Assembly (NCBI GenBank): GCA_046306195.1
Contig: JBKDXO010000126.1
Location: forward strand, 11,289 to 75,288
From: Planctomycetota bacterium
Lineage (GTDB): Bacteria > Planctomycetota > Planctomycetia > Pirellulales > Pirellulaceae
Direction: 5' to 3'
DNA: 64,000 bases
A program made the translations under genes and the position numbers. Of the stretch, positions 28,423 to 29,990 are shown one piece after another (within the stretch, counting starts at the first letter, position 1; every line of letters begins with the position of its first letter). A model generated the notes under the pieces. It had not been told where the DNA came from and searched no databases. It saw only the letters and a program-made list of their open reading frames with translations.

Positions 28423-28977
28423 TCATCGCGTTTGCGTTTGCGATCTGAGAATGGGAAACCGGAACTCCATCAACGCCCACGAGCCAAACAGGATACCGCA
28501 GTAGGTCAAATCCCCCAACACGGTCCATTGGAAGAAAGGGATCGCCGCCGCATAGCACGCCATAAGCCCCGCAAGACTCTTCTCGTACATCGTCGACGAG
28601 AACCAGACGGCGAGGTTACTAAGGGTGAAAAACATGACCGAAGACGTCAGCGAAAGCCCAATGATCCGCCCCGGTTGCGTTCGATGATCCTTAAACAGTA
28701 GCCCGAGCGCTCCGATCAACATCATCAACAAGTAGATCACCCACATACCTTGATGCATTCCCCATGACTGGGAGTACCCCATTCGGTATGCCGCTTCGAT
28801 CGCCACGTCGGAAACCAACATGGCCACGACTGGGAAAAGCAATGCTGACCAAGCCCGTTGAAACCGCATGGCTCCGAACAATGCCATCGCCGCGATGGGG
28901 GCAAAGTTGGGAGGGTGCGGCACGGCACGGGTCAACGCCGCAATTGCCAAAAAAGTGAGGATGGTTGTGGTTCTCAT
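28423..28977 (-). CDS. DUF6580-like putative transporter (ECF S-component/BtuM-like)
   Basis: PHPPNFAPIAAMALFGA, FFTLSNLAVW and CYAAAIPFF..TVLGDL, with ~6 TM segments in 184 aa. Confidence 0.75.
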   Translation of the reverse strand: MRTTTILTFLAIAALTRAVPHPPNFAPIAAMALFGAMRFQRAWSALLFPVVAMLVSDVAIEAAYRMGYSQSWGMHQGMWVIYLLMMLIGALGLLFKDHRTQPGRIIGLSLTSSVMFFTLSNLAVWFSSTMYEKSLAGLMACYAAAIPFFQWTVLGDLTYCGILFGSWALMEFRFPILRSQTQTR

Positions 28978-28989
28978 ATTCCGTACCTC

Positions 28990-29796
28990 TTAATTGCTGG
29001 TTCTGTAAACTGGTCCCGATACATCATCCCCCCAACTCTTCACGGTCAGGTATCCAATCTTTTGTTTCGCAGCCAAGTCTTTGGCCGATTGAGGCCAATG
29101 CCCCGGCGGAGGAGCGGTGCTCAATCGCATCGACTCCACGTGCCCGTCCAAGAAACATACCATGGCCAACTCACCGGCATGACGGGCATGGGTTCCCGGC
29201 GCGGTGAAGAGTTCGAAGTCGTCCGGACCTTGGATGTAAAAATTTTCGGTCGCTTTCAAGTTCGGATCTCCCGCCCAGGGCAATTGGATTCTGGCGGCGT
29301 CGGAGAACATGATCATCCTGGTGGTGCCGACCTGGGCGAAATCCGCCATGCGGCGTTGAACGACGCGAGGTGCATAGCTGGGAGGAGGATACATCGTGGT
29401 CCCAAGGTTCTGATTGTAGCCATACCCCCCGGTTTCCCCACCATACAACAAGTCGATGCCGGTCATATCCGGGCAGCGGATGATCGCTCCGTTGCGCTCA
29501 TAGAACGGCGCGAGAATCCCGTTCTCTTTCGCCACCAAGTTGGTCGCATAGTCCACTTCACCGAACCATGCCTGCGACTTCGGATACCCGGGAAGGGCGG
29601 CGCACGGGAATTTTCGATGGACATCATGAAACATCATGACCGCAACCCCCAACTGGCGAATGTTGCTAGAACATTCGATGCGACGAGCCGCACCCCGGGC
29701 CGCCTGAACCGCAGGCAACAGCAACCCAACCATGACCGCGATAATCGCGATCACAACCAGCAGTTCAACCAACGTGAACCCTCTTCGATCACTCAT
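28990..29796 (-). CDS. DUF1559 prepilin-type N-terminal cleavage/methylation domain protein
   Basis: [35 protein letters not shown] at the N-terminus and RH..(x)..FLDGHV at the C-terminus. Confidence 0.92.
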
Positions 29797-29899
29797 CCGA
29801 CATCATACCTCTTAGCGGGCACAGGAAGCCGTTCGGATGTCCGCTACAACATGCCGGACGGGGCACTAGGACCGTAGTGCCTCGTAAGTTTCACAAGCG

Positions 29900-29990
29900 T
29901 TCAAGAGGTCCGACTTTACGGTGCCGACCGCGTCCAGGTTTTTCACCTGAGTTCCCTTGAAAGCTTCTCGATTCGCTCTGTTTGATTCTC
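29900..29990 (-). promoter_or_regulatory. Probable cobalamin (B12) riboswitch, compact form
   Basis: Minus strand reads ttcAAGGGAActcaGGTGaaaaaCCtggACGcggtcgGCACCGTAAAGTCGGAcctcttgaa. It shows a B12-core-like GGGAA, a T-loop hairpin, AC.G..GC.AC.GT and AAG.C.G elements, with ttcaag/cttgaa closing. It lies in the leader of a vitamin-transporter-like operon. Confidence 0.6.

Follow-up and report, generated by a model that had tools for sequence, protein, structure and literature searches.

A compact cobalamin riboswitch ahead of a DUF1559 pilin-like gene and a DUF6580 gene: a candidate B12 uptake unit in a planctomycete

In a 64,000-nucleotide stretch of planctomycete DNA (hereafter the window), we identified what is almost certainly a real cobalamin riboswitch ahead of two minus-strand genes, the first encoding a type IV prepilin-like DUF1559 protein and the second a DUF6580 membrane protein. 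Related bacteria tend to carry either this kind of pilin, here called type A, or the receptor BtuB, a pattern that points to an undescribed B12 uptake route. Both genes are very probably under the control of the switch, and the pilin likely acts in corrinoid acquisition. The reading that we favor, though by a limited margin over even odds, is that of a B12-repressed uptake unit in which an envelope B12-capture pilin replaces BtuB and DUF6580 is the candidate inner-membrane carrier.

Results

A compact cobalamin switch leads the unit

The features of the locus, in window coordinates, are as follows.

29895 to 29973, minus strand: compact class II cobalamin riboswitch aptamer (RF01689 match and covariation in six leaders)
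29956 to 29961 with 29900 to 29905, minus strand: closing stem of the aptamer (78% paired in six leaders)
29935 to 29949, minus strand: aptamer P4 (100% paired in six leaders)
29923 to 29931, minus strand: aptamer P5/L5 (P5 100% paired in six leaders)
29910 to 29921, minus strand: short P6 of the aptamer (100% paired in six leaders)
29862 to 29881, minus strand: hairpin read as P13 (ggcacta/tagtgcc; seven pairs, 100% paired, four of the seven doubly changed)
29829 to 29861, minus strand: second conserved hairpin of the expression platform (11 pairs, 98.5% paired, one doubly changed)
29807 to 29813, minus strand: Shine-Dalgarno-like site (from sequence; 10 nt before the gene 1 start)
28990 to 29796, minus strand: gene 1, a 268-aa type IV prepilin-like DUF1559 protein of the type A, B12-linked clade (N_methyl and DUF1559 matches)
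28423 to 28977, minus strand: gene 2, a 184-aa DUF6580 membrane protein and candidate inner-membrane corrinoid carrier (PF20221, 166 bits)
41241 to 42527, minus strand: A24 prepilin peptidase (PF01478, 47.4 bits; its only tblastn match in the genome is itself)

A sequence-only reading of this DNA had proposed a cobalamin riboswitch in the leader and had named a covariance-model search as a check. Rfam at its gathering score gave no match across the 64 kb window. An E-value-level search matched the whole RF01689 (AdoCbl-II) model to 29895–29973 on the minus strand with 34.1 bits (E = 1.7 × 10−6), which is 2.4 bits below the curated cut-off of 36.5 bits. With this match and the covariation among six leaders, the proposal holds: by homology and covariation the leader is a cobalamin-clan switch, which we do not file as a curated RF01689 member. 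Scored with RF01689, RF00174 and our own model (150 candidates each), it is the sole cobalamin-switch candidate in the 5.4 Mb genome, which is 99.95% complete. Global folding of the leader was unremarkable (z = −0.58), and at E 0.1 the same RF01689 model also gives weak matches in control genomes, 8 of the 14 examined. A further run of RF01689 on 150 genomes with strict filters missed even the window switch and mostly marked class I cores, and its results were not used.

In its architecture, the leader shares the four-way junction core of class II cobalamin riboswitches (RF01689, clan CL00101): it has the P3–P6 junction, its P6 is short and the P2 arm is absent. This compact form is kept in seven of the eight close relatives that we aligned. 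Across six leaders, the aptamer and two hairpins were paired in 96.1% of cells, with both-sided changes in 8 of 38 pairs; this paired fraction was reached by none of 500 shuffles, and slid controls gave 32–45%, though the structure was drawn on the window copy, one of the six, which favors that structure in the test, and related sequences can beat shuffles, so that the covariation supports the fold and does not prove it. A model built from the six leaders finds four further leaders in the same position (L103, L128, L115 and L118). Rfam E-value scans of 15 leaders with no class I match returned two sub-threshold matches. We also observed compact switch variants missed by Rfam, which are clear with our own model at L115 (4622–4734) and L118 (4528–4638) and weak in the leaders of L140 and L143.

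The hairpin at 29862–29881 had been proposed as the expression platform. Its pairing and double changes bear out the hairpin, and its role can be narrowed: it is probably P13, the half of that platform that provides the kissing loop. The L13 loop can form five pairs with L5, two of them G-U, in all six leaders, which gives the leader a candidate L5–L13 kissing loop as in the class II definitions of PMC7367189, where the L5–L13 contact is described as common to all cobalamin switches. These five pairs are 100% paired with only one one-sided change and no double change, a weak signal; as the pairs hardly vary, the kissing contact is plausible only. No terminator-like site was found on the minus strand within the leader, and the number of such sites overall was at chance level. 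The lack of one in the leader, together with the Shine-Dalgarno-like site downstream of the second hairpin, suggests that control would be translational. A promoter scan gave zero hits, and in nested RNA folding the ribosome site had the same accessibility whether or not a ligand-bound mimic was imposed.

Gene 1 encodes a divergent DUF1559 prepilin

The unit lies behind a ThiF/MoeB gene ending at 30062. Gene 1 scores 34.1 bits against PF07963 (N_methyl) and is above cut-off for TIGR02532; against PF07596 (DUF1559) it scores 49.7 bits, also above cut-off, over only profile positions 1–42 of 268, which marks it as a divergent member. The earlier assignment as a pilin-like DUF1559 protein is thus sustained by the N_methyl match and by the first 42 DUF1559 positions. 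The protein carries a class III signal, that is, a G/F-x3-E processing motif and a hydrophobic helix, and Glu5 of the motif is invariant across 51 sequences. The clade comprises 72 homologs at 44–100% identity, and its conserved head contains a Gly/Tyr/Asn-rich block, an Arg-His...Asp motif and many aromatics. Gene 1 has an H-x10-DG variant motif and no match to TIGR04294 (H-X9-DG), which matches 13 of 26 clade members at E values up to 0.05.

The predicted structure of gene 1 (pLDDT 89.5) is a pilin fold with large insertions. In a structural comparison, each of the top 18 of the 50 matches listed was a pilin or pseudopilin (best Z 5.5, with 123 aligned at an rmsd of 3.4); this Z is modest and lies within the range of a common arrangement, covering the pilin core only. 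The best Foldseek matches were likewise pilins, at E values of 0.6–0.8. On the model, then, gene 1 has a pilin fold, with modest scores. It shares the processing motif, the long N-terminal helix and the pilin core with type IV pilins and pseudopilins such as PilA4, EpsG and ComP, but it is about twice their size, has large conserved insertions and stands in a unit with no assembly genes. ComP is a ligand-binding minor pilin (DNA-binding, per its PDB title); the ligand of gene 1 would be a vitamin.

In a tree of 66 proteins, the type A clade (support 97–100) shares a single branch, with support 100, with two subgroups that are more distant. That branch is separate from 28 paralogs of the window's own genome and from the two further DUF1559 clades that are led by a switch. 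As a control on the association with the switch, the genome has 41 DUF1559 matches and one switch. Five of the DUF1559 paralogs are clustered on contig C53 of the genome at 49.5–59.3 kb.

The switch and the pilin recur together

Type A orthologs were found in 27 of 151 genomes of the family, which we take to be Pirellulaceae since records of homologs carry the names Pirellulaceae and Pirellula. RF00174 was above its cut-off upstream of 23 of 28 family loci, comprising 15 of 16 and 8 of 12 in two batches (the other four loci of the 12-locus batch are DUF6580 loci). In a phylum sample the clade was present in 43 of 401 genomes, and RF00174 was above cut-off in 13 of 20 loci scanned, of 29 fetched. 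We then used 67 loci from a species collection, with three distant loci set aside. A class I or class II switch stands upstream in 58 of these 67 loci (49 class I and 9 class II), a count that is partly circular, since some contigs gave training hits and five of the nine class II loci built the class II model. Recurrence in other genomes, which had also been named as a check, was therefore found, partly in training sequences. Among the nine loci where no switch was seen, five have less than 700 nt of upstream DNA and the other four simply show no switch. All switch profile matches are upstream on the sense strand. Full class I switches take the same position before other clade members, and the class II leader of the window replaces the class I switch that precedes most orthologs.

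Downstream partners at the 67 loci include a PF01902 ATPase in 10 and DUF6580 in 13, both B12-locus genes. A search of the window's genome gave no PF01902 member, and no DUF4465 or PEP-CTERM-like gene was found near any of the 67 core loci. At two loci, L040 and L041, DUF6580 lies behind the pilin with a copy of a PF01902 diphthamide-synthase-like ATPase on either side.

More broadly, cobalamin switches were present in 120 of 150 family genomes. When 110 open reading frames directly behind these switches were scanned, DUF1559 was the commonest first gene (49), followed by TonB receptors (22) and DUF4465 (11); outside these 110 were 15 type A first genes recognized by profile and about eight reductase- or MetE-like genes that were not scanned. 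In a separate DUF1559 clade, type B, 19 of the 38 second genes that we scanned are DUF4465. BLAST gives no relationship between type B and the type A head, which is strongly conserved. Distant type A relatives (L169–L171) stand behind DUF4465 genes. A third switch-led DUF1559 clade, type C, has support 100 (L181, L232, L174, L182, L284 and L285); in L181 and L232 a CbiA/CobQ-type gene comes next, which hints at cobinamide salvage. In four further loci (L249, L254, L269 and L274), a DUF1289 match comes after the switch and before the prepilin motif, in frame with the motif; it is either a fusion or a small upstream reading frame. At seven others (L240, L243, L247, L250, L271, L275 and L294), the switch-led reading frames match nothing in Pfam, and several have PEP-CTERM-like ends; they are candidate new B12-binding surface proteins.

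The type A pilin, BtuB and DUF4465 rarely occur together

To follow BtuB across the 151 family genomes, we used a profile of switch-led BtuB-like receptors, which matched 50 genomes, or 49 once a weak partial match was dropped; DUF4465 is present in 54. Among these 151 genomes, a BtuB-like receptor occurs in none of the 18 core carriers of the type A pilin versus 5.8 expected (Fisher p = 5 × 10−4, a value that is overstated as kin are not independent, and drafts can miss genes), and DUF4465 occurs in one of the 18 versus 6.4 expected. Two of nine more distant clade members co-occur with a BtuB-like receptor. In 15 of the 18 core genomes, the pilin's switch is the only one listed. DUF4465 and the BtuB-like receptor exclude each other too, sharing 3 of the 151 genomes versus 17.5 expected.

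On an RpoB tree of 87 genomes, the core carriers require 12 changes and are scattered among genomes with the receptor or DUF4465, with swaps within two genera, including that of the window genome. An independent-pairs test gave about nine of ten pairs as opposite; this test is biased by the selection of the 87 genomes according to trait, and we rely on the scatter of carriers only. In the phylum sample, a BtuB-like match was found in 1 of 43 carriers versus 10.1 expected, and in 1 of 21 versus 5.2 expected when the two largest families were removed (p = 0.018, subject to the same overstatement). It looks as if three alternatives had repeatedly displaced one another, namely BtuB, a type B pilin with DUF4465, and a type A pilin alone.

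DUF4465 proteins are reported to bind B12 (PMC13398666); pilins and planctomycetes go without mention in the main text of that paper. The Bacteroides surface B12-binding protein BtuJ is a DUF4465 protein, and related genomes pair the type B DUF1559 clade with DUF4465 behind the same switch, whereas the type A clade is without DUF4465 in 17 of 18 core genomes.

The genome appears to need B12 and lacks known import genes

The genome contains a full-length 1251-aa MetH-like reading frame. Searching it by tblastn with MetE, CobN, CobQ, CobU, CobT, BtuB, TonB and BtuF queries found none of these, and profile searches for CobS, TonB receptors, DUF4465, EcfT/CbiQ and BtuF were also negative, as were searches with six candidate partner queries. 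One BtuR query likewise found no adenosyltransferase of that type. With a MetH-like protein present and neither MetE nor cobamide synthesis found, the cell appears to rely on importing cobalamin or methionine. Cobalt uptake was rejected as a function of the unit, as cobamide synthesis genes were not found in the genome.

The two genes are very probably all that the genome's single switch controls. They resemble BtuB-TonB with BtuCDF, or BtuM, under a B12 riboswitch in being switch-controlled envelope genes of a B12-dependent non-producer, and their place behind the switch is the one that btuB holds in related genomes. They differ from BtuB-type systems in that no TonB receptor, BtuF or EcfT was found in the window genome and that the first gene is a prepilin. 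The earlier suggestion that a DUF1559 protein is tied to corrinoid uptake gains from both the recurrence of the switch and the genome-wide absence of BtuB, BtuF and EcfT.

For pilus assembly, the genome has five secretins, nine T2SSE (T2SS/T4P) ATPases and one A24 peptidase. This peptidase had been put forward as a candidate processing enzyme; the PF01478 match shows it to be real, but it lies 11 kb away behind unrelated genes and the link is generic. It is a plausible general processing enzyme outside the unit. The window also contains a Tad-like ATPase and two T2SSF genes (19786–23085, minus strand), followed by a 1326-aa FtsK/SpoIIIE protein (15762–19742). A specific link of the unit to the A24 peptidase or the Tad genes was rejected, as these are not among the recurrent neighbors.

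Gene 2 is a DUF6580 protein loosely coupled to the pilin

Gene 2 starts 12 nt past the gene 1 stop with a Shine-Dalgarno-like stretch between, in keeping with the two-gene unit proposed from sequence. RNA runs gave scattered short contigs with small shares, none bridging gene 1 and gene 2. The DUF6580 family is very large, with 6895 clusters; of the 151 family genomes, 125 have a member, and both same-genus genomes are without one. A DUF6580 gene lies within 3.2 kb behind the pilin in 13 of the 67 loci, of which 44 have 3 kb of downstream DNA. Conversely, 12 of 132 DUF6580 places are within 7 kb behind a listed switch (27 switch places are unlisted), some with no pilin. Part of the family is thus tied to B12, and its coupling to the pilin is loose. 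The idea that the pilin is a dedicated subunit of a DUF6580 permease is not supported by this count, and the genomes that carry the pilin tend to be those without BtuB, an outer-membrane receptor.

Gene 2 had also been likened to solitary S-component transporters. Among 93 DUF6580 members, the S-component families PF12822 and PF07155 matched two and one, respectively, and weakly (E about 0.002), and the DUF6580 profile matched no chain in the PDB. NCBIfam gave nothing usable for DUF6580, nor did the ESM Atlas, which is without DUF6580 clusters. A single-sequence model of gene 2 had a pLDDT of 52.9, and a fold search with it gave no usable match. As EcfT (PF02361) was not found in the 99.95% complete genome, gene 2 could only be a solitary carrier. 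Like BtuM, the solitary S-component B12 transporter (PMC6072759), gene 2 is small and hydrophobic and sits at a B12 locus in a genome without EcfT, but no sequence link or alignment to BtuM was obtained. BtuM is described as having an invariant cysteine, Cys80 (PMC6072759); the only cysteines of gene 2 are at 141 and 160, with no evident counterpart of Cys80, and Cys141 is outside the 90%-conserved columns of 93 sequences. We do not file gene 2 as BtuM, and we lean only slightly toward DUF6580 carrying B12. A 386-aa protein with an N-terminal HTH_26 and an otherwise unannotated remainder (27063–28223, minus strand) follows 200 nt after gene 2.

Discussion

A proposed mechanism and its alternatives

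In the mechanism that we propose, the unit would be switched off by B12 at the level of translation. Plentiful cytoplasmic cobalamin would bind the aptamer, L5 would dock on L13, and the downstream hairpins would hide the ribosome site. When B12 is short, the prepilin would be made and, judging from its motif, processed by the A24 peptidase. Its conserved aromatic-rich head would then capture cobalamin in the envelope, doing the job that BtuB does in relatives; whether the pilin itself binds B12 we put at even odds. The pilin would most likely be a minor or tip subunit of a type IV filament/secretin machine, and that it works through filament and secretin at all is a possibility that we hold at a little under even. 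DUF6580 may then move the vitamin across the inner membrane, the weakest step of the scheme.

Four other readings of the locus were weighed. The prepilin could stay anchored in the inner membrane as a substitute for BtuF, handing cobalamin to DUF6580 or another permease after entry by a general outer-membrane route. A BtuF-family protein was indeed not found in the genome, the two genes are adjacent with the 12-nt spacing in the window and its closest relatives, and the unit has no assembly genes; against such a periplasmic relay, just 13 of 67 loci have DUF6580 behind the pilin, Glu5 of the processing motif is invariant in 51 sequences, and the pilin excludes BtuB, an outer-membrane receptor that an inner-membrane relay would be expected to complement. 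We regard it as unlikely. More improbable still is that the pilin does not bind B12 and instead serves another surface protein that does, encoded away from the unit, by recruiting or exporting it. The absence of a DUF4465 or PEP-CTERM-like gene near the 67 core loci and of DUF4465 from the window genome (by profile and six candidate partner queries) speaks against this adaptor role, as does a strongly conserved type A head with no BLAST relationship to type B. What lends it some weight is the sister arrangement, in which DUF4465, reported to bind B12 (PMC13398666), follows a type B DUF1559 gene in half of the second genes scanned (19 of 38), together with the distant type A relatives behind DUF4465 genes.

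A pilin for adhesion or community life, induced by B12 starvation and used, for example, to attach to producers, would fit the pilin fold of gene 1 and the type IV-like pili of related Akkermansiaceae, which have been proposed to mediate attachment (PMC13174399); the exclusion of BtuB would then reflect niche or lineage. We consider this very improbable, as a cell that depends on MetH and makes no B12 would be left without any outer uptake route, and as it sits poorly with the within-genus swaps with BtuB or DUF4465. We give almost no credence to the leader being a decayed or chance look-alike beside unregulated genes. The score below the cut-off, the z of −0.58 and the weak matches in control genomes would all be compatible with a look-alike, but the six leaders carry compensatory changes, the model from them finds four more leaders in the same place, and full class I switches hold that position in other clade members. 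Capture by the pilin in the envelope remains the reading that we favor.

Significance

DUF1559 is described as the largest paralog group of Planctopirus limnophila, with 68 copies of unknown function (PMC10632474), and the transport of large solutes across the planctomycete outer membrane has been stated to be uncharacterized (PMC5394234). Planctomycete crateriform fibers and the MUL2 pili of Akkermansiaceae, from the same superphylum, are pilus-like structures linked to the binding and uptake of large solutes (PMC5394234, PMC13174399); they concern glycans, and the available text of these papers mentions no DUF1559 subunit or vitamin cargo. In a search of the openly accessible literature, we found no link of DUF1559 or DUF6580 to B12, no paper on DUF6580 and no report of a cobalamin riboswitch with a prepilin or pilin in planctomycetes, although older B12-regulon tables, for instance in supplements, regulon databases or subscription journals, could list such genes.

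To this background the locus adds a partner-free pilin clade, a compact switch and a counted exclusion with BtuB and DUF4465. It is a minimal case, with two genes, no DUF4465 and no BtuB, and it gives one DUF1559 member a single predicted, colored and commercially available ligand, a regulatory switch and a predicted growth phenotype (MetH without MetE). If true, the proposed mechanism would extend B12 competition in aquatic communities by a further route and offer a first handle on the whole DUF1559 family. More tentatively, and with the odds in our view against it as a whole, a cargo-specific pilin would replace a TonB-dependent receptor: seated at the tip of a type IV filament threaded through a secretin, it would bind cobalamin, which the filament would draw into the periplasm. 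Each genome's dozens of other DUF1559 paralogs would then make up a set of nutrient receptors that can be exchanged for one another. Were this so, DUF1559 paralogs would serve the phylum's unexplained fiber-linked uptake system.
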